Shown here: positions 1,419 to 64,000 of the stretch, one piece after another | Layout: each line of letters begins with the position of its first letter | How positions within the stretch are numbered: the stretch's first letter is position 1 | Source: Candidatus Aminicenantes bacterium UBA2190 | GTDB lineage: Bacteria; Acidobacteriota; Aminicenantia; UBA2199 | NCBI GenBank assembly: GCA_002335385.1 | Contig: DCVK01000021.1 | Location: forward strand, 137,635-201,634 | Direction of reading: 5' to 3' | Length of the DNA stretch: 64,000 bases | Notes under the pieces: generated by a model | What the model was told of the DNA's origin: nothing | What the model saw: only the letters and a program-made list of their open reading frames with translations | The model's database searches: none | Made by a program: the position numbers and the translations under genes

Positions 1419-1443
1419 GCGCCCGCGCCGCAACCAGCGAAAC

Positions 1444-1479
1444 CCCTTGTTCTCCGACGGGGACAAGGGGTTTTTTTTT
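1444..1479 (+). terminator. rho-independent terminator after the TPR gene
   Basis: 9-bp GC stem CCCCTTGTC...GACAAGGGG followed by T9. Confidence 0.8.
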
Positions 1480-55204: not shown

Positions 55205-55337
55205 TTCTAAAGGCAAAAGGCCAAAGGAAAAAGGCAAAAGTGAAGAAAGATATCTATCGAGTGCTCTCTGCAACCACTATCACTACCGCTCAAGTCTCGT
55301 TTGCTTTCTTGCTGACACTGACACTGTCACTGACACT
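55205..55337. repeat. A-type AAGGCAAAAG module, F-type CCACTA hexamer x4 module, and E-type (CTGACA)4 module in series
   Basis: AGGCAAAAGGCCAAAGGAAAAAGGCAAAAGTGAAG ... CAACCACTATCACTACCGCT ... CTTGCTGACACTGACACTGTCACTGACACT. The E module ends 21 nt before the RBS of gene 55359. Confidence 0.65.
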
Positions 55338-55358
55338 TAGAATAAATAAGGAGGAATC

Positions 55359-56072
55359 ATGGATCCGCTGGTCAGCCAGGTACGCCGGGAGCTGAGGGAG
55401 AATACCGACGAGAAGAAGCGCCGGGGGGCCCAGGCCTATTTCAAGGAGGGGGTGACCTGCCTGGGCGTGGGCACGGCGACCGTTCACCGCATCGCCCGGG
55501 AGAGGATCGCCGATCTCAAGGGCATGACCAAGGGGGAGGTCTTCGGGCTGTGCGAGGAGCTGTGGCGCGCGGGGAGCCTCGAGGAGACGATCGTGGCCTG
55601 CGACTGGTCGTACTTCATCCGCCGGCAATACGTCCCCGGGGACATCACGGTGTTTGCCGGGTGGGTCGGCAAATACGTGAACAATTGGGCGTCATGCGAC
55701 ACGCTGTGCAATCACTCGGTCGGGGAACTCCTGGAGATGTACCCGGAGCGCGTGGCCGATCTGAAGCAATGGGCCCGGTCGAGGAACCGCTGGCTGCGGC
55801 GCGGGGCCGCCGTGTCGCTGATCATCCCGGCCAAGAAGGGAAAGTTCCCGGACGACGTCATGCAGATCGCCGACATCCTGCTCGAAGATCCGGACGACCT
55901 GGTGCAGAAGGGCTACGGCTGGATGCTGAAGGTGGCCAGCCAGGCGCGGCAGAAGGAGATCTATGCCTACGTGATGCGCAACAAAGCGGCCATGCCGCGA
56001 ACGGCCCTGCGCTATGCCATCGAGAAGATGCCGGCCGAATTGAAACGGCGGGCGATGAAGAAGCAGGCATGA
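55359..56072 (+). CDS. DNA alkylation repair enzyme (AlkD/AlkC-like HEAT-repeat glycosylase family)
   Basis: N-terminal ...RGAQAYFKEG...GVGTATVHRIARE typical of PF08713. HEAT-like helical repeats throughout. Confidence 0.75.
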   Translation: MDPLVSQVRRELRENTDEKKRRGAQAYFKEGVTCLGVGTATVHRIARERIADLKGMTKGEVFGLCEELWRAGSLEETIVACDWSYFIRRQYVPGDITVFAGWVGKYVNNWASCDTLCNHSVGELLEMYPERVADLKQWARSRNRWLRRGAAVSLIIPAKKGKFPDDVMQIADILLEDPDDLVQKGYGWMLKVASQARQKEIYAYVMRNKAAMPRTALRYAIEKMPAELKRRAMKKQA

Positions 56073-56083
56073 AGGGAAGTTCT

Positions 56084-56225
56084 CAAGGGAAGGCAGAGGA
56101 AAGAAACAGATGAGGTTCGAAGTTCGACGTTCGACGTTTAAGAATAAAGCGAGAGGAGAAAGGCTATAACACTTGGATCTCGCTTATGTTCTTGCTGACA
56201 CGGACACTGCCACTGACACTGTCCT
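56084..56225. repeat. D-type unit, C-type GTTCGAA/GTTCGAC heptamer x4, and E-type (CTGACA)n module
   Basis: CTCAAGGGAAGGCAGAGG ... GAGGTTCGAAGTTCGACGTTCGACGTTT ... CTTGCTGACACGGACACTGCCACTGACACTGTCC. A TATAAT box (56248-56253) lies between the E module and the RBS of gene 56297. Confidence 0.65.
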
Positions 56226-56296
56226 GAAATAAAATCCATTTCCGCATATAATGCTGGCGTGCTCCGCTCCCGGGGGCGGGGAACAAGGAGGAGCAA

Positions 56297-56857
56297 ATGG
56301 TGACATTGTTTTCATTGTGGCTGCCGATCGTCGTGGCGGCCGTTGTCGTGTTCATCGCCAGCTCGGTCATCCACATGGCGCTGCCCTGGCACAAGAAGGA
56401 CATGATCAAGGTGCCCGGGGAGGACGAGGTGCGCGAGGCGCTGCGCAAGTTCGCCATCCCGCCCGGGGACTACGGCGTCCCCCACGCCGGCTCGATGAAG
56501 GAGGGGAGCTCGCCGGAGTTCACCGCCAAGCTGAACGAGGGGCCGGTGCTGTTCATGTCGGTGGCCAGGAACGGCCCGCCCAACATGGCGCTCAGCTTCG
56601 TCTTCTGGTTCCTCTACTTGCTGGTCGTCGGCAAGCTCACGGCCTACGTCGCCTGCCTGGCGCTGCCCGCCGGCGCCGCCTTCCTGCCTGTCTTCCGTCT
56701 CACCGGCGCTGTGGCCTTCGCCGGTTACTCCCTGGCCCTGCTGCAGCGGCCCATCTGGTACGGCGGCAGCTGGTGCGCGACCCTCAAGTCGGTGTTCGAC
56801 GGCCTGGTCTACGCTTTGCTGACCGCCGCCGTCTTCGGCTGGCTGTGGCCGCGCTGA
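56297..56857 (+). CDS. hypothetical integral membrane protein
   Basis: About 5 predicted TM segments. GGAGG RBS. Confidence 0.5.
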
Positions 56858-56906
56858 GGTGCTTCGGGCATATCTTGTAAACGATACCGGACAATAATCA
56901 GATAAC

Positions 56907-57028
56907 GGGAGGGTTTGAAACCCTCCCCTACGTGAAGATGTTTCTTTTCCTCCTGCAACCACTACCACTATCACTACCACTGATACCTGTAATGCCTCTT
57001 GCTGACACTGACACTGTCACTGACACTG
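56907..57028. repeat. J-type hairpin GGGAGGGTTTGAAACCCTCCC+CTACGTGAAGA, F-type (CCACTA)4, and E-type (CTGACA)4 modules
   Basis: Stem-7/loop-7 hairpin followed by the CTACGTGAAGA tail, as at 57850-57881. The F and E modules are near-identical to those at 55268-55337. Followed by TTGACG...TATATAAT promoter-like boxes before gene 57100. Confidence 0.65.
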
Positions 57029-57099
57029 TTTAGTTGACGCGGTCATACAATGATGCTATATAATAATAACGATGAATTAACGCATCGGGGAGGTGTATC

Positions 57100-57327
57100 A
57101 TGGTCAAGACGCTCAGCAAGCACGGCAACAGCCTGGCCCTGGTCATCGAGAAGCCGGTGCTCGAGCTGCTGGGCGCCGACGCCGCCACTCCCTTCGAAGT
57201 GACCACCGACGGCCGGGCGCTGGTGCTGACGCCGGTGCTCGACCCGCAACGGCAAAAGCGCTTTGCCGCGGCCCTGGACAAGGCGAACAAGAAATATCCC
57301 CGGGCGTTGAAGAAGCTGGCCGAATAG
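57100..57327 (+). CDS. AbrB/MazE/SpoVT-family antitoxin (Phd-like partner of Doc)
   Basis: 75 aa. Swapped-hairpin motif region KHGNSLALVIEKPVLELLG. Stop overlaps the Doc start (TAGATG). Confidence 0.75.
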   Translation: MVKTLSKHGNSLALVIEKPVLELLGADAATPFEVTTDGRALVLTPVLDPQRQKRFAAALDKANKKYPRALKKLAE

Positions 57328-57735
57328 ATGGCCGGCCCCGTTTTCCTGACTTTGGCCGAGGTGTTGGAGATCCATCGCGACCAGATCGGTCGTTACGGGG
57401 GCAGGGAGGGAATCCGCGACCTGGAGCTGCTGCAATCGGCGCTGGCCGTTCCCGCGGCTTCCTTCGCCGGCGGATTCCTGCATGAGGGCCTGCCGGAGAT
57501 GGCCGTCGCATACCTGTTCCACATCGTCCGCGACCATCCCTTCATCGACGGCAACAAGCGCACGGGGGCGGTGGCGGCGCTGGTTTTCCTGCTGCTCAAC
57601 GGCCATGAGCTCCGCGCCCCGGAAGACAAGCTGTTCGAGGCTGTCCTCGCCGTGGCCTCCGGGAAGATGTCCAAGGCCGAGCTGACCCTGTTCTTCCGCC
57701 GCTGGACGAAAAAAGGGCAGGGAAAGAAGAGATAG
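57328..57735 (+). CDS. doc: Doc (death-on-curing) toxin, Fic-fold kinase
   Basis: Fic/Doc motif HPFIDGNKRTG. About 135 aa. Confidence 0.9.
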   Translation: MAGPVFLTLAEVLEIHRDQIGRYGGREGIRDLELLQSALAVPAASFAGGFLHEGLPEMAVAYLFHIVRDHPFIDGNKRTGAVAALVFLLLNGHELRAPEDKLFEAVLAVASGKMSKAELTLFFRRWTKKGQGKKR

Positions 57736-57762
57736 GACGGGATTAGAACCTGTTTCCGCATC

Positions 57763-57945
57763 GGGCGGGCACGGGGGCCCGCCCCTACGGAAATATTGCG
57801 GCAGGCTTACACCCCAAGGAGGTTAAACCCTCCTTACATGGAAAAATGCGGGAGGGTCACAGACCCTCCCCTACGTGAAGAGACAATGGGAACCTGCCGG
57901 TGTAGTCCTCCAGCTCTTGCTGACACTGACACTGTCACTGACACT
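57763..57945. repeat. three consecutive GC-stem hairpins each followed by CTACG (J-type), then an E-type (CTGACA)4 module
   Basis: GGGCGGGCACGGGGGCCCGCCC-CTACGG. AAGGAGGTTAAACCCTCCTT. GGGAGGGTCACAGACCCTCCC-CTACGTGAAGA. CTTGCTGACACTGACACTGTCACTGACACT at 57915-57945. Confidence 0.65.
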
Positions 57946-58213
57946 TTCTTCAATATTTTGAATTTTTTATAACAAAATAAAATATCACATTTTTCCCTAT
58001 TGTCTCCTTGTCCGCCAAAAACTATAATTTTCTCTTGATCACCCGATGGACGCTAAAGGAATTCATCCTCCCCTGCGAAGCTTCCCCAGGCCACCGGCGG
58101 GAGCTTGGGAAAATATTAAGGAAAGCACCTTTAAATAAATCATATAAGCGGGGCGGCAGATGGATAGCGGATCAGCGGTCCGCCCCGAAAATTATTAGGA
58201 AGGAGGACAGGAA

Positions 58214-58627
58214 ATGTCTGAACAAATCAGGGTTCGTTGGGGCTGGCTCAAGGGAATGTATGTGTACACGATTGCTGTGGCGGGGTTTCTTGGCTTGGGA
58301 ATCATCGTCATGCCCGAAATGATCAGAACGAAGTTGCCATGGCCGGTTGCAGAACCAACGGCTTTCGGGGTTGTCGGCAGCATTTATGTGGCATGCGGAC
58401 TGCTGGCCATATTGGGACTGCGCTCTCCTCTCAAATTTGTGCCGCTTCTTTTGCTGCAGCTTTTCTACAAGTCCGTATGGTTCATCGGCGTCGCCTTGCC
58501 TCTCTGTGTCAGCGGCCATTTCCCGACTTATGCGCTGCCCATGGCGATCATCTTTGTAACGTTCATCATCGGAGATCTGATTGCAATACCTTTTTCATAT
58601 GTCTTTGCTAAAGAACCAAGTCAGTAA
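58214..58627 (+). CDS. hypothetical small membrane protein (4 TM)
   Basis: Hydrophobic helices. GGAAGGAGG RBS. Confidence 0.5.
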   Translation: MSEQIRVRWGWLKGMYVYTIAVAGFLGLGIIVMPEMIRTKLPWPVAEPTAFGVVGSIYVACGLLAILGLRSPLKFVPLLLLQLFYKSVWFIGVALPLCVSGHFPTYALPMAIIFVTFIIGDLIAIPFSYVFAKEPSQ

Positions 58628-58693
58628 AGGGCTGTTGGGGACGGAACGTTCCCCGGTTCTGTTCGTAGTAATGAGAACCAGATCAAGGATAAG

Positions 58694-59623
58694 GTGAACA
58701 TGAAAAGAGAATTCCGCATCGTTCTGCTGGCCGTGGTGATGGCGTCTGTCTTCTGGTTTGTCGGAGCGGAGGAAGAGCTCGTCGCTCCGCCTGCGCCCTA
58801 TTTCGGGCTGAAGGCGCCGGGAATGGTCCCGGAGGTGTTCGCCCCGGGAATCGTCTCGACCGGGCAGTTCGAGTTCGGGATTGCGTTTTCCCGGGATGGC
58901 AGGGAGTGCTTCTTCACCCGGCGCGCCACGTACGAGGGCGCGGACAACCGGATCTTGCGGACGCAAATGAGCGATAAAGGGTGGAGCCGCCCGGAGCCCG
59001 CCTCCTTCTCCCGCGACGTCTTCGAATTCCTCCCGGTCGTCTCGCCTGACGGCCGCCGGCTCTATTTCTATTCCGAGCGCCCCGAACCACCTGCGGATGC
59101 GGCGCTGGACGGAGATCTCTGGGTGACGGAGAAAGGGGAAACGGGCTGGGGCGATCCGCAGCGCCTGCGGGCGCCCGCCAACCGCAGGTATTGCATGATG
59201 GTCTCGGAGGCGAAGAGCGGGACGATCTATTTTTCAGGGATGTTCGCCGGGAAGAGGGGCATGTTCCGTGCCGCCTGCCAGGCGGGCGAGTATGGGGAAA
59301 TGGAACGCCTGCCCGAGGAGATCAATGCCATCCGGCCCGCCCACCCCTTCATCGCCCCCGATGAAAGCTACCTGATCATGGACGCCCAGGTAACGGGCAT
59401 GGGCCAGCCGGAACTCTTCATCAGTTTCCGCAAGGCGGACGGGAATTGGACTCGCGCGCTGAACATGGGGCAAGCGATCAACGCCACGAAGACCGAATTC
59501 GCCGCCAGCGTCTCACCCGACGGAAGATTCCTGTTCTTCCACCGTCGCGTGAACGGCAACGGGGATATCTACTGGGTCGATGCCGGGATCCTTGATGAAC
59601 TACGGGAAAAGATCAGGGACTAA
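58694..59623 (+). CDS. secreted TolB-like / WD40-like beta-propeller (PD40) repeat protein
   Basis: Signal peptide. Repeated ...SPDG(R)...F...FFxR/S... blades (SRDGRECFFT, SPDGRRLYFYS, SPDGRFLFFH). Confidence 0.6.
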   Translation: MNMKREFRIVLLAVVMASVFWFVGAEEELVAPPAPYFGLKAPGMVPEVFAPGIVSTGQFEFGIAFSRDGRECFFTRRATYEGADNRILRTQMSDKGWSRPEPASFSRDVFEFLPVVSPDGRRLYFYSERPEPPADAALDGDLWVTEKGETGWGDPQRLRAPANRRYCMMVSEAKSGTIYFSGMFAGKRGMFRAACQAGEYGEMERLPEEINAIRPAHPFIAPDESYLIMDAQVTGMGQPELFISFRKADGNWTRALNMGQAINATKTEFAASVSPDGRFLFFHRRVNGNGDIYWVDAGILDELREKIRD

Positions 59624-59815
59624 AGGGATGGACTGTTGATCCGATTATTCAAGGAAAGGATTAGGGACGGACGGCAACAAGGTAAGAACTAGAATGGAAC
59701 TCCGGGGCATGATCCGTAATCAGAGGGCATTTGGTGTAAGCATTATCGTATTCCTGCCATGAGAAAAAGTAATCATGCAAGACCTGTATTTCTTAATCCA
59801 AAGGGAGGCATCAAG

Positions 59816-60814
59816 ATGCGATTGATCTTCCTCGGCATTTTTTGCCTGGCGATCATCTTCTGTCCGGGCTTCGGGCAGAAAGACAAACCCGAAACGGAAG
59901 TGGGCTTTGCCGACGGCCACGTTCATGCCGGCTTTGCAAAAAAGGACGGCATCCTCGCCACGCGTTTCGCTTATTTCCAGCTCCAGGGCGTCAAGACCAT
60001 CTGCCTTTCCCTGCCGCTGGACAGTTCCAGGACCGCTGACCTGCGGGCGCGGATCAGCGGGGAGATCGCCGCGCTGCGCGAGCTCGCGAACAGGGAAAGG
60101 ACTTTCCGCCTGCTCCCGGGCGACGGCGGAACGCCGGGGCCGCCGGGGGAATTGGATGTGTTCCTGAGCGTGGAATATTTTCACGGCGCCTTCAACGGCG
60201 ACGCCGGCCTGGTGAACGCTTACAGGGACCTGGGCATCAGGGCTGTCACCCTCATCGACAATGACCGCGACCCGTTCTTTGCCGGGGGAGCGCTGACCCC
60301 GTTCGGGAAAAAGGTGATCGCCCTGATGGACGAATCGGGATTGCGGATCGACGTTTCACACCTGGACTCGGCCCAGAAGCTCGCGGTCATCGCGGCCGCC
60401 AAGTCGCCGGTCCTCGTTTCGCACACCAATGCGCGGAGCGTGGCCGATCTCGATTACAACATTCCGGATGAGGTCCTGGCGGCCTTGAAGAAGAACCGGG
60501 GCTCGGTCCTGGTCTCCTTCAACCGCAACGGCGTTTTCGCCGAAAACGGAGGGAGAAGCGGCGGCATCGCCCAACTGGCGGACCATATCGATCATTTCGT
60601 TGAATGGCTCGGCGTCGACCATGTCGGCATCGGCTCGGACTACCAGGCCGACGGCAGGTATGTGGCCGCGCCGCTGAACGAGCCCGACGCCTTCGGAAGG
60701 ATCGCCCGCGAGCTGGCCGGGCGCGGCCATGACGCGGCCGCGATCCATCAGATCATGTCCGCCAATGTCCGGCGATTATTTGGGGCTGGGGAAAAAGCGT
60801 ATAATTCGGAATAG
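59816..60814 (+). CDS. secreted membrane-dipeptidase (M19) family protein; second paralogue in window
   Basis: Signal peptide from the internal Met with AAGGGAGG RBS. HxH-type ligands (GHVHAGF), SHTNARSV, and GIGSDY motifs. Confidence 0.8.
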   Translation: MRLIFLGIFCLAIIFCPGFGQKDKPETEVGFADGHVHAGFAKKDGILATRFAYFQLQGVKTICLSLPLDSSRTADLRARISGEIAALRELANRERTFRLLPGDGGTPGPPGELDVFLSVEYFHGAFNGDAGLVNAYRDLGIRAVTLIDNDRDPFFAGGALTPFGKKVIALMDESGLRIDVSHLDSAQKLAVIAAAKSPVLVSHTNARSVADLDYNIPDEVLAALKKNRGSVLVSFNRNGVFAENGGRSGGIAQLADHIDHFVEWLGVDHVGIGSDYQADGRYVAAPLNEPDAFGRIARELAGRGHDAAAIHQIMSANVRRLFGAGEKAYNSE

Positions 60815-60862
60815 GCTGCACCTTCTCGAAGCAGCGCTGAAATAAAACCAGAGGAGACCGGA

Positions 60863-61516
60863 ATGGATTTTTATGAAGCGGTGAGGAAGCGGCGGACGGT
60901 CAGGGAGTTCGCGGACAGGGCGGTGCCCGAGGAAGCCCTGCGGCGGGCGCTGGCCGCGGGGCTGCGGGCGCCATGCAACGCCCACTTGAAGAGCTGGCAG
61001 TTCATCCTGCTCCGCGACCTGGAAAAGCGGGACAAGGCGGTCTTCGACGGACTGAAGGCCAGGGATATGAAGGATCCCGACGAGATCGAGCGCTTCGTCG
61101 CCCGCTTCGAGGAGCCGGAACTTAAAAAGGTCTACCGCCGCTCGCTGCCCCGGCAGCTGAGCATGATGCTGGAGGCGCCCGAGCTGCTGCTGGTGTGCTA
61201 CCGCATGAAGCCCCAGGACGAATGCCGCACCCTGTTCGAGCTGAACCCCCTGGCGTCGGCCTGGATGTGCATCGAGAACATCATGCTGGCACTGGCCGCC
61301 GAGGGGCTCTACGGCTGCACCTATACTCCCTACGAATCCAGGGGGCTGAAAAAGATGCTGGGCGTACCCGCGGGCTACGAGATCGCCGCGGTCATTCCTC
61401 TCGGCTATGCCGAGGAAGATCCCGGCGAGAACGAAACGGAGGACCTGGACGCGCGGCTGCACATTGACGGCTGGGAGCAGAAGACAGGGAGGAATGAGGG
61501 AAGCAGAAGCAAGTAA
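60863..61516 (+). CDS. nitroreductase-family (NADH-flavin oxidoreductase fold) protein
   Basis: RRTVREF N-terminal FMN-binding signature. Conserved ...IPLGYA... C-terminus. Confidence 0.85.
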   Translation: MDFYEAVRKRRTVREFADRAVPEEALRRALAAGLRAPCNAHLKSWQFILLRDLEKRDKAVFDGLKARDMKDPDEIERFVARFEEPELKKVYRRSLPRQLSMMLEAPELLLVCYRMKPQDECRTLFELNPLASAWMCIENIMLALAAEGLYGCTYTPYESRGLKKMLGVPAGYEIAAVIPLGYAEEDPGENETEDLDARLHIDGWEQKTGRNEGSRSK

Positions 61517-61548
61517 AAAGAACTTCCGCTCTTTCCCGAGGAGGAAAC

Positions 61549-62484
61549 ACGAAAAAAAAATTCGCATGGCCGCTGATCGCCGGGGCGCTTGTTCTCGCCG
61601 CCGCGGCAGGTTTTGCCCTAAGCGCGGGGAATGTCCCCGGCCGGGAAACGCTGCGCCTTGAAGTGGAGGCCGTCGCGCGGTCGATCGACGGCAAGCTGGG
61701 AGTGGCCATGTTGGGGCTGGAAACGCGGGAGAGCTTCCCGTTCAACGGAGACCACCGTTTCCCGATGCAGAGCGTCTACAAGTTTCCCCTGGCCATGGCC
61801 GTGCTCGAGTTGGTGGACAAGGGCCGGCTCTCCCTGGGCCAGGCCGTTCGCGTGGCCCCTGCCGACCTCCTGCCCGATACCTGGAGCCCGCTGCGCGACG
61901 CGAACCCAAGGGGCGATTTCGATCTCGCCCTGAGCGAGCTGCTGCGAGTCACCGTGTCCGAGAGCGACAACAACGGCTGCGATATCCTTTTCCGCATGCT
62001 GGGCGGCCCGGCGGCGGTCGACGCCTACGTCCGCGGTCTCGGCGTAGAAGGCATGGCCATCGCCGCCACCGAGGAGGAAATGCACCGCGTCCGCGATTCG
62101 CAGTTCAGCAACTGGTGCGAGCCGGCCGCCATGGCGCGGCTGCTCGACCTCTTTTTCCAGGGCGGGACCCATGCCGTTGCCAGCCGCGATTTCCTGATGC
62201 GGCTGATGATGGAGACCGCCACCGGACCCAAGCGCATCAAGGGCTTGCTGCCCTTGGGGACGCCGGTGGCCCACAAGACCGGTACGTCGTTCACCGATGA
62301 AAAAGGGTTGACGGCGGCCACCAACGACGTCGGCATCGTCACCCTGCCCGACGGGAGCCATGTCGCCATGGTCATTTTCCTGGCCGACTCCTCCGCCTCG
62401 CCGGAGGCCCGGGAAAACGCGATCGCCCGCGTCGCCCGGGCCGGGTTTGATTACTTCGCGGCGGCGAAACCCGGGAAAGAGTAG
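61549..62484 (+). CDS. bla: class A beta-lactamase; no canonical start codon in frame with its signal peptide
   Basis: S-x-x-K (SVYKF), SDN (SESDNN), E166-like EEEM, and KTG (HKTGTS) all present. The signal peptide KKKFAWPLIAGALVLAAAAGFALSA is in frame but preceded only by ACG at 61549, 4 nt after GAGGAGG. The first canonical start is GTG 61663, after the signal peptide. Confidence 0.75.
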   Translation, partial: TKKKFAWPLIAGALVLAAAAGFALSAGNVPGRETLRLEVEAVARSIDGKLGVAMLGLETRESFPFNGDHRFPMQSVYKFPLAMAVLELVDKGRLSLGQAVRVAPADLLPDTWSPLRDANPRGDFDLALSELLRVTVSESDNNGCDILFRMLGGPAAVDAYVRGLGVEGMAIAATEEEMHRVRDSQFSNWCEPAAMARLLDLFFQGGTHAVASRDFLMRLMMETATGPKRIKGLLPLGTPVAHKTGTSFTDEKGLTAATNDVGIVTLPDGSHVAMVIFLADSSASPEARENAIARVARAGFDYFAAAKPGKE

Positions 62485-62581
62485 GAGATTTTTGTCCGTT
62501 TCCGGGGTTTCGATTATGGATATTCGGATAATTTTGAAGTGAAGACGAAGATCGGCCCATGGCCGTTCAGGAAGGAGAACG

Positions 62582-62854
62582 ATGCTATACATGGCATATG
62601 AGAAATTCAAGGCGGCCGGGGCCAAAGAGGTCTATCGCCGATCGCGGGAAAAAGGCAGGATGCTGCCCCAAGGGCTGAATTATGTCTCAAGCTGGGTGGA
62701 CCTGGAGTTCAGCAGATGCTTTCAACTTATGGAGACCGAGGACTTTTCGCTGTTTTCAAAATGGACCAGCCAATGGCGGGACCTGGTGGAATTCGAGATC
62801 ATTCCGGTCAGGACATCGGCTGAAGCGATGACTTTGATGGAGCCGACCTTATGA
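62582..62854 (+). CDS. small hypothetical protein (DUF3303-like)
   Basis: 90 aa. N-terminal MLYMAYEKFK resembles the DUF3303 start. Weak support. Confidence 0.4.
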   Translation: MLYMAYEKFKAAGAKEVYRRSREKGRMLPQGLNYVSSWVDLEFSRCFQLMETEDFSLFSKWTSQWRDLVEFEIIPVRTSAEAMTLMEPTL

Positions 62855-62965
62855 ACGTGATAAAGTTTTCAGACACGTCTTGCTTTATGACCTTTCAAAA
62901 TTTGTAAAGTAAGGGACAGGAGGAGACGAATCCCTCCGCCCGGCAGCCCAGTGAAGGAGGTTCTC

Positions 62966-64000
62966 ATGGCCATCTCAACAATGTCTTTCCTCAGCAAGGC
63001 CAAGCGGCCGTTTTTCCTGGTCACAATCCTTTTCCTTCTGGCCGCAGCCCCGGCCTGGCCGGCCGCTGAAAACGAGTTCCTTACCCGCGAGGCCAGGGAG
63101 GCCATCGTGAAGCGCGTCGCTTCCGAATTCCGGGCCAAATATTTTCCCGCGCAGCTGGCCGAGGCCATGGCGGCGAACCTCGAGCGCAGCTTTGCCGCCG
63201 GGGCCTACGACGGGTTCGGGGATATCCCGGCGTTGGCGGCCCGCCTGCAGGAGGATTTGCGTTCGGTGTCGCGCGATCTGCACGTAAAGGTACTGCCCGG
63301 CGTGATCCCGGATTTCGACTCCGATGCCGAAATGCTGCGGCGGGAGAACTACGGCTTCACCGCCGTCGAGGTGCTGTCGGGAAACATCGGCTATGTCGAC
63401 TTCTTCCAGTTCTACGCGGTCAGGGATGCCGGGGCGACGGCCATCGCCGCCATGAACTTCGTGGCCAACTGCGACGCGCTCATCGTTGACCTGCGCAGCA
63501 ACGGCGGCGGCTACCCCGAGCTGCGTTCGCTGATCTGTAGCTATTTTTTCGACGAGCCCAAGCGCCTGATCGACTTCCACGGCCGCGACGGCGTCACCCA
63601 GAACTGGACCCTGCCTCACGTGCCCGGCCGACGCCTGCCCGCTGTCCCTCTCTTTGTGCTGATTTCCCGCAACACCTTTTCCTGCGCCGAGGATTTTGCC
63701 TTCTGCCTGCAGGGCCTGGGCCGGGCGACGGTCATTGGCGAGAACACTCGCGGAGGGGCCCATGACGCGAAATTGTGGGCCTTCCCTGCGGAAGGGATCT
63801 CTCTGCAGATCCCGTTCAACGAAGCGGCCGATCCCAGAACCGGGAAAAACTGGGAAGGAGAAGGGATCAAGCCCGACGTGCCGATGCCGGCCCGCAAGGC
63901 GCTGCCGGCAGCATGGCGCCTGGCCGCGCAGGCCCTGCTGAAGGAGGAGAAGGACCAAGGGCGGCGCTTCCTGCTCGAATGGATCGTCCAGGATTGCGGC
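62966..64000 (+). CDS. S41-family (tail-specific / C-terminal processing-like) peptidase, 3' end truncated by the window
   Basis: Signal peptide. Peptidase_S41 core (...IVDLRSNGGG...) with a catalytic Ser/Lys context. GAAGGAGG RBS. Open to the window end. Confidence 0.7.
   Translation, partial: MAISTMSFLSKAKRPFFLVTILFLLAAAPAWPAAENEFLTREAREAIVKRVASEFRAKYFPAQLAEAMAANLERSFAAGAYDGFGDIPALAARLQEDLRSVSRDLHVKVLPGVIPDFDSDAEMLRRENYGFTAVEVLSGNIGYVDFFQFYAVRDAGATAIAAMNFVANCDALIVDLRSNGGGYPELRSLICSYFFDEPKRLIDFHGRDGVTQNWTLPHVPGRRLPAVPLFVLISRNTFSCAEDFAFCLQGLGRATVIGENTRGGAHDAKLWAFPAEGISLQIPFNEAADPRTGKNWEGEGIKPDVPMPARKALPAAWRLAAQALLKEEKDQGRRFLLEWIVQDCG

Follow-up and report, generated by a model that had tools for sequence, protein, structure and literature searches.

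In a 64-kb stretch of DNA (the window, meaning all of the DNA analysed here), an open reading frame for a class A beta-lactamase (bla) carries its signal peptide in frame but has no canonical start codon in front of it, which raises the question of whether, and from which codon, the secreted enzyme can be made. The original prediction offered three answers, namely rare initiation at an ACG codon, very recent inactivation by a point mutation or an indel, or a sequencing error in a run of adenines, and regarded the locus as a cryptic or silenced resistance gene in every case. The evidence favours a silenced gene: with a probability of about three in four, we consider the locus to hold a translationally silenced gene for a secreted subclass A2 beta-lactamase, which would make it a pseudogene of very recent origin or a 'cryptic' resistance gene. 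The features on which this reading draws are collected in Table 1.

Table 1. Features of the bla locus, with positions counted along the window, and start regions of the window gene and its orthologues.
Feature	Position	Strand	Remarks
Nitroreductase-family gene, upstream	60863..61516	+	Pfam PF00881, E=7e-22
ATG in the third frame	61494..61496	+	within the nitroreductase 3' end; GGAGG 1 nt upstream
TGA, in-frame upstream stop	61495-97	+	read from the sequence
Shine-Dalgarno GAGGAGG, intact	61538..61544	+	seen in the sequence; GGAGG-to-ATG distance (N7) kept in 8 orthologous loci
ACG spacer codon	61549..61551	+	4 nt after the Shine-Dalgarno; L007 has an identical ACACG, then ATG
Former start codon, now AAA	61552..61554	+	gap-free alignment to orthologues with ATG
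A9 homopolymer	61552..61560	+	AAA at the former start plus two Lys codons, AAA AAA
Signal-peptide coding region, (K)KKFAWPLIAGALVLAAAAGFALSA	61552..61626	+	translation; likely cleavage after LSA
Mature subclass A2 class A beta-lactamase domain and stop	61627..62484	+	intact ORF; stop codon 62482-84
GTG	61663..61665	+	first canonical in-frame start, residue 38 of the precursor; gene-caller product of 273 aa
ATG	61708..61710	+	used by other gene callers; residue 53; truncated product of 258 aa
SVYK motif	61771-82	+	aligns identically to VEB-type PDB chains
SDN motif	61963-71	+	aligns identically to VEB-type PDB chains
EEEMH motif	62071-85	+	aligns identically to VEB-type PDB chains
KTG motif	62275-83	+	aligns identically to VEB-type PDB chains
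L007 start region			GGAGGAAACACG ATG AAA AAA TTC GCA TGG
UBA6072 start region			GGAGGAAACAGG ATG AGA AAA TTC GCA TGG
L008 start region			GGAGGAAGTAAG ATG AAG AAA TTC
Window start region			GGAGGAAACACG AAA AAA AAA TTC GCA TGG

The bla product matches the NCBIfam class A beta-lactamase model NF033103 with 274.2 bits (cutoff 200) and Pfam PF13354 (Beta-lactamase2) with E=5e-37, while its best-scoring model, NCBIfam NF012099 for subclass A2, gives 319.2 bits, 0.8 bit short of the cutoff of 320. Comparison with the PDB retrieved VEB-type and PER structures (E=8e-86 to 5e-63), of which the VEB-type structures align end to end (E=8e-86) and PER-1 and PER-2 reach E of about 1e-63 to 1e-65. Identity to the solved VEB structures is 50-55% over the full length of the product, and its fold is therefore certain. 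That all class A catalytic motifs are intact, as had been predicted, is borne out by their identity to those of the VEB-type structures; we take SVYK, SDN, EEEMH and KTG to be Ambler S70-x-x-K73, S130-D-N, E166 and K234-T-G, respectively. The product shares the segments PMQSxYKF, SDNNGCD, ATEEEMH and HKTGxS with the subclass A2 families VEB/PER/TLA and CGA/CIA, its best NCBIfam models are those for SubclassA2 and TLA, and like the enzymes of this subclass it is encoded with a Sec-type signal peptide. In contrast to the named A2 families, however, it reaches no family cutoff (for example, 295 against 640 bits for TLA), it groups with about 17 Aminicenantes alleles (77-89% identity) that form a clade of their own, and its gene lacks a start codon. 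On these alignments we assign the predicted product to class A, subclass A2 (VEB/PER/TLA-like), with putative activity and substrates, and regard it as an addition to the A2 branch that belongs to none of the named VEB, PER and TLA families.

From its relatives in genome collections we assign the gene to the chromosome of an uncultured member of Candidatus Aminicenantes (Acidobacteriota). Among species representatives the closest is UBA6072, which shows 96.1% nucleotide identity over positions 58636-62444 and has the gene order of the window (PD40 protein, M19 dipeptidase, nitroreductase, bla), and the order M19 dipeptidase, nitroreductase, bla recurs in the UBA6072 loci L003-L006 and L010. 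Because the stop codon of the nitroreductase gene lies only 35 nt before the former bla start, the two genes are probably co-transcribed. Promoter-like sites were absent from positions 58500-64000, terminator-like sites occurred there at chance level, and the gap between the nitroreductase gene and bla held neither kind of site. Scans of the window with Rfam and for tRNAs returned no match, and there is no second bla copy within its 64 kb. A candidate for an intact second copy elsewhere in the genome is the allele on L007, which co-occurs with the start-less one in assembly ERZ27315071; such a copy would account for the loss being tolerated.

The coding sequence itself is intact, with 310 bla codons free of stops and frameshifts. 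Translated in frame across the start region it reads ...NTKKKFAWPLIAGALVLAAAAGFALSAGNVPG..., and the signal peptide KKKFAWPLIAGALVLAAAAGFALSA is encoded in frame with the mature domain. Its homology to the orthologue precursors, which read MKKFAWP...GFALGA, agrees with the translation in supporting the Sec-type signal peptide that the original prediction had placed upstream of the mature domain. Cleavage is likely to follow LSA, with GNVPGRETLR as the predicted mature N-terminus, and the mature VEB chains in the PDB start aligning at residue 30. A codon-by-codon check of the bla frame from the upstream stop to GTG 61663 found no ATG, GTG or TTG, as had been claimed, and the only near-cognate codons in this interval are AAG (61501 and 61507), ACG (61549 and 61648), CTG (61573 and 61651) and ATC (61576). 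Initiation at GTG 61663, which is preceded by CTGCGCCTTGAA with no Shine-Dalgarno sequence, would cost the product its signal peptide and roughly the first 8-12 mature residues. The nearby ATG at 61566 does lie in another frame, as had been noted, although the peptide that it encodes is 31 rather than 30 aa long. The original prediction made no mention of the third-frame ATG at 61494.

We aligned the 5' regions of nine orthologous loci (L003, L004, L005, L007, L008, L009, L010, L013 and L015) with the window without gaps and found ATG at window position 61552-54 in every one of them. The arrangement GGAGG-N7-ATG-A[AG][AG]-AAA-TTC-GCA is common to eight orthologous Aminicenantes loci from MAGs and contigs, the pattern GGAGG-N7-ATG is found likewise in L009, L013 and L015, and the full-length orthologous proteins all begin with M[KRTM][KN]FA[WR] at window position 61552. 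Over positions 61538-61572, L007 differs from the window at two bases only, both within the former ATG. In the window, the orthologous start is thus replaced by a non-start codon, and the next canonical in-frame start is residue 38. The Shine-Dalgarno sequence, the ACG codon 4 nt behind it and the A9 run all lie where the original prediction had put them, but its view of ACG 61549 as a start or former start does not hold, as the orthologues carry ACACG (or ACAGG or GTAAG) within a conserved 7-nt spacer in front of ATG. The comparison of orthologous start regions that it had proposed puts the ancestral ATG at 61552-54, not at ACG 61549. From the alignment we read the lesion as ATG>AAA, a tandem TG>AA double substitution without an indel, which joins the two following Lys codons into the A9 run. 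Of the two kinds of very recent inactivation that had been envisaged, the point mutation is accordingly upheld and the indel is not, given the gap-free alignment and the origin of A9 from TG>AA. This run is the only one of nine adenines in the 62% GC window, for which base composition predicts about 0.02.

The same lesion is present in other assemblies. Copies and variants of the allele were recovered by exact-protein look-ups, and all nine of the other contigs read match the window at every base of a 260-nt stretch spanning the start, AAA and A9 included. They comprise five Logan contigs (L001, SRR5323328; L091, SRR943329; L092, SRR942941; L093, SRR943330; L095, SRR636569), three ENA contigs (L002, ERZ27315067; L090, ERZ27315071; L094, ERZ922796, built from SRR636559) and one JGI contig (L089, 3300002220), which represent nine different run or assembly accessions, although some of the ENA assemblies may reuse the same runs. 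L094 (SRR636559) is labelled PRJNA183510, a project on Canadian hydrocarbon-contaminated sites (PMC7164591). The ten copies are 100% identical and may come from one clonal population, and each of the ten assemblies has exactly A9, with no length variant among them. An artefact of sequencing or assembly hiding a true ATG has in its favour that homopolymers are error-prone on some platforms. It is nonetheless scarcely credible, because the lesion is a double substitution that leaves length unchanged and the ten contigs, from nine further accessions and different assemblers, agree base for base. The recurrence of the double substitution across assemblers and accessions speaks against a homopolymer or assembly artefact, and on these contigs sequencing error as the cause of AAA, the last of the original proposals, appears effectively excluded.

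Truncated calls that begin at GTG 61663 (273 aa) or ATG 61708 (258 aa) are recorded from many contigs, and the protein cluster to which the window allele belongs contains truncated calls only and no intact form. A search of 5.8 billion clusters, in which 8,000 word-sharing candidates were scored, found no intact protein more than 90% identical, and scans of metagenome contigs with a gapped start-region pattern and a 28-nt exact pattern gave no match. Two other Aminicenantes alleles (L011 and L012, from sample MFD04716) have apparent frameshifts in the signal peptide; on a speculative and improbable reading, 5' disruption of this bla family might be recurrent and selected.

The remainder of the gene bears the marks of purifying selection. 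Pairwise dN/dS between the window gene and six orthologues is 0.29-0.41, inside the range of 0.29-0.56 found between intact orthologues, and the changes specific to the window lineage comprise 12 synonymous and 10 nonsynonymous ones, where neutrality expects about 74% nonsynonymous (P=0.0036). Pseudogene decay or relaxed selection in bla is rejected by both the dN/dS values and the lineage-specific changes. The lack of decay elsewhere in the gene argues that the start was lost recently. The substitution pattern suggests either that the loss is very young compared with the divergence from the nearest known allele or that the gene is still useful; an intact ORF with a signature of purifying selection fits a still-functional gene as well as a very recent loss.

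We envisage silencing as follows. Replacement of ATG 61552-54 by AAA has left the Shine-Dalgarno sequence, the signal peptide, the mature domain and its motifs untouched. As the Shine-Dalgarno sequence is intact but the initiation codon is AAA, canonical initiation would find no start and the precursor should not form; a ribosome-binding site with no start codon behind it would not yield precursor at a meaningful level, and we infer that bla expression is lost. Residual initiation at ACG 61549 or AAA 61552 would be at most a trace. By analogy with Escherichia coli, in which starts at non-canonical codons reach 0.01-3% of the AUG level (bioRxiv 10.1101/063800), it would amount to about 0.01-1% of that at an AUG.

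The alternative that most merits weighing, though we hold it to be unlikely, is attenuation, in which initiator tRNA would start at ACG 61549 (or AAA 61552) and yield a low level of secreted, active enzyme that is maintained by selection. Because the strong Shine-Dalgarno sequence has survived and is separated from ACG by 4 nt, the spacing at which the neighbouring DUF3303 gene has its ATG, some leaky synthesis is conceivable, and in E. coli an ACG-initiated protein with an intact N-terminal Met has been detected at a low level (bioRxiv 10.1101/063800). An argument that ACG stands too close to the Shine-Dalgarno sequence was dropped, as the 4-nt spacing is in use at the DUF3303 gene; spacing was judged from neighbouring gene starts, since a window-wide histogram of GGAGG-to-start distances mostly records GGAGG read in frame within coding sequence (a period-3 signal) and is uninformative. 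Attenuation would also account for an ORF under purifying selection and without decay, but recent loss explains this signature equally well, and against attenuation stand the ancestry of ACG as a spacer rather than an evolved start, the published levels of 0.01-1% of AUG for such codons and the fact that no relative has a non-AUG start at the bla position. Still less probable is a functional truncated cytoplasmic protein made from GTG 61663 or ATG 61708, a reading that we would put far below attenuation even though these are the first canonical in-frame starts and GGGAG lies 5 nt before ATG 61708. GTG 61663 has no Shine-Dalgarno sequence, the truncated products lack the signal peptide and, when set against VEB structures, 8-25 residues of the mature fold, and the full precursor is encoded in every relative. 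Periplasmic targets would gain no protection from a beta-lactamase confined to the cytoplasm, which further counts against such a product, and the annotated 273-aa and 258-aa products are regarded as gene-caller artefacts.

The A9 run invites a different explanation, namely a slippage switch in which the loss of one A, through slippage of RNA polymerase or during replication, would bring ATG 61494 into frame and produce an extended secreted precursor, MREAEASKKNFRSFPRRKHEKKFAWPLIAG..., in a stochastic or phase-variable manner. In many bacteria transcriptional slippage becomes significant once a run reaches nine adenines (PMC1088944), among the reversible silencing lesions of Staphylococcus aureus resistance genes poly(A) indels are the most frequent (PMC6819657), and no stop interrupts the frame of ATG 61494 before the A run, with the A8 product keeping a basic n-region and a hydrophobic core. 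Yet ATG 61494 sits inside the nitroreductase coding sequence with GGAGG just 1 nt upstream, and since the UBA6072 allele carries it identically alongside a normal bla start, it is no evolved start. No relative has an A9 tract, the ten assemblies include no A8 variant, and an A10 variant would join a frame without any start. Of the properties of a slippage tract, a slippery homopolymer of at least 9 A/T at the frame junction is present as the A9, whereas conservation or length variants and a credible upstream start are both missing, and we consider a switch improbable. The related idea that TG>AA turned the start region into an A9 contingency tract, from which an A8 subpopulation of transcripts or cells would make an N-terminally extended, exported enzyme as a stochastic, low-cost form of resistance, we find very improbable as well. 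A -1 slip within A9 could nevertheless reactivate the gene, and a C>T change at 61550 could restore a canonical start in one step.

Translational silencing of bla, the reading that we prefer, can be set beside known systems. Some bacterial genes naturally use starts other than AUG, GUG or UUG for regulation, as with the AUU of infC, and such starts are near-cognate and conserved among relatives. The window gene resembles them in that the codon where initiation would occur, behind a good Shine-Dalgarno sequence, is non-canonical, but AUG is found in all its relatives, and AAA departs from AUG at two of the three bases. A9 runs are slippage sites in Thermus thermophilus dnaX, in IS elements and in Shigella mxiE (Baranov et al., 2005; PMC1088944), and the window shares with these sites a sense-strand A9 at which a one-base change in mRNA length switches the ORF. 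In the known sites, however, the tract is conserved and both frames are truly coding with a real start, whereas the window A9 occurs in one allele only, was made by the inactivating mutation and has an upstream ATG without a proper ribosome-binding site. In the silencing of antibiotic resistance by mutation (SARM; Kime et al., 2019; PMC6819657), as proposed for the window gene, a small mutation in the gene or its expression signals turns off a resistance determinant whose structure is intact, and reversion by a single further mutation is possible in principle. The two differ in the lesion, a poly(A) deletion in SARM and start-codon loss by a tandem double substitution here, and in their basis: SARM was described in cultured clinical S. 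aureus with phenotypes and measured reversion, while the window gene is known from sequence alone, in an uncultured environmental anaerobe.

Loss of a start codon is an ordinary, known kind of event, and it leaves what is known of beta-lactamases and of initiation unchanged. The locus does illustrate the over-calling of genotypes in environmental metagenomes, since resistome surveys and gene callers enter it as a resistance gene, 'beta-lactamase class A', of 258 or 273 aa, although the exported enzyme is probably not made; truncated gene calls can mask the loss of a start codon. For the organism, a silenced bla would mean that at least one Aminicenantes population can do without its chromosomal A2 beta-lactamase, or finds it costly, while a single transition (61550 C>T) would be enough to give the gene a canonical start again.

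Divergence from the nearest species representative, UBA6072, is much greater in the class A beta-lactamase gene bla than in the three genes directly 5' of it: in pairwise comparison with the UBA6072 loci (L004 and L010), bla has a dS of 0.17 and a dN of 0.069, against a dS of 0.05-0.09 and a dN of 0.008-0.020 for the upstream neighbours. Synteny between the two genomes stops about 40 nt short of the bla stop codon, beyond which the window carries genes for DUF3303 and an S41 peptidase, and UBA6072 carries genes for a hypothetical protein, a SHOCT protein and a P-type ATPase. On these comparisons, bla seems to lie at the edge of a recombination or rearrangement, or its allele seems to have been swapped between lineages.

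Two genes 5' of bla, the window and UBA6072 alike encode an M19 membrane dipeptidase that carries a signal peptide of its own. Mammalian M19 dehydropeptidase-I hydrolyses carbapenems, and a functional link between the dipeptidase and bla is only a thought.

Further upstream lie at least five copies of the intergenic repeat CTTGCTGACACTGACACTGTCACTGACACT, which consists of four CTGACA/CTGTCA hexamers. Two of the copies follow a GC-rich hairpin, CGGGAGGGT...ACCCTCCCC, and a sequence similar to the repeat region is found in another Aminicenantia MAG. Besides the A9 run of bla, the window contains just one homopolymer of nine bases, a T9 immediately 3' of a GC hairpin (CCCCTTGTTCTCCGACGGGGACAAGGGG); together they form a textbook intrinsic terminator.

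Coordinates of bla, its surroundings and related loci
Feature	Sequence	Position
Hairpin CCCCTTGTTCTCCGACGGGGACAAGGGG plus T9	window	1430-1479
T9	window	1471
Repeat CTTGCTGACACTGACACTGTCACTGACACT	window	55295-57963
Hairpins 5' of repeat	window	56906, 57849
Repeat-like region	L008	1128-1439
Three genes 5' of bla	window	58694-61516
M19 dipeptidase	window	59759-60814
bla	window	61552-62484
End of synteny with UBA6072	window	62444
Out-of-frame signal-peptide start	L011	2950-3010
Out-of-frame signal-peptide start	L012	2960-3010

Intact and start-less alleles occur together in ENA assembly ERZ27315071, on contigs L007 (intact allele P0003) and L090, respectively. P0003 is 87% identical in protein sequence to the start-less allele and, unlike it, sits between prolyl isomerase and nitroreductase genes; it could be the allele of another strain or a second copy within the same genome. 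Two bla copies (L009 and L011) are present in MAG MFD04716.bin.1.273.

In two other bla loci of the Aminicenantes clade, L011 and L012, the conserved signal-peptide N-terminal start (MPMIRRVAWS... and MTTKQ...) is out of frame with the mature domain, indicating a frameshift within the signal-peptide region. Both MAGs derive from sample MFD04716, and the frameshifts could be assembly indel errors or could represent further 5' disruptions in the same bla family.
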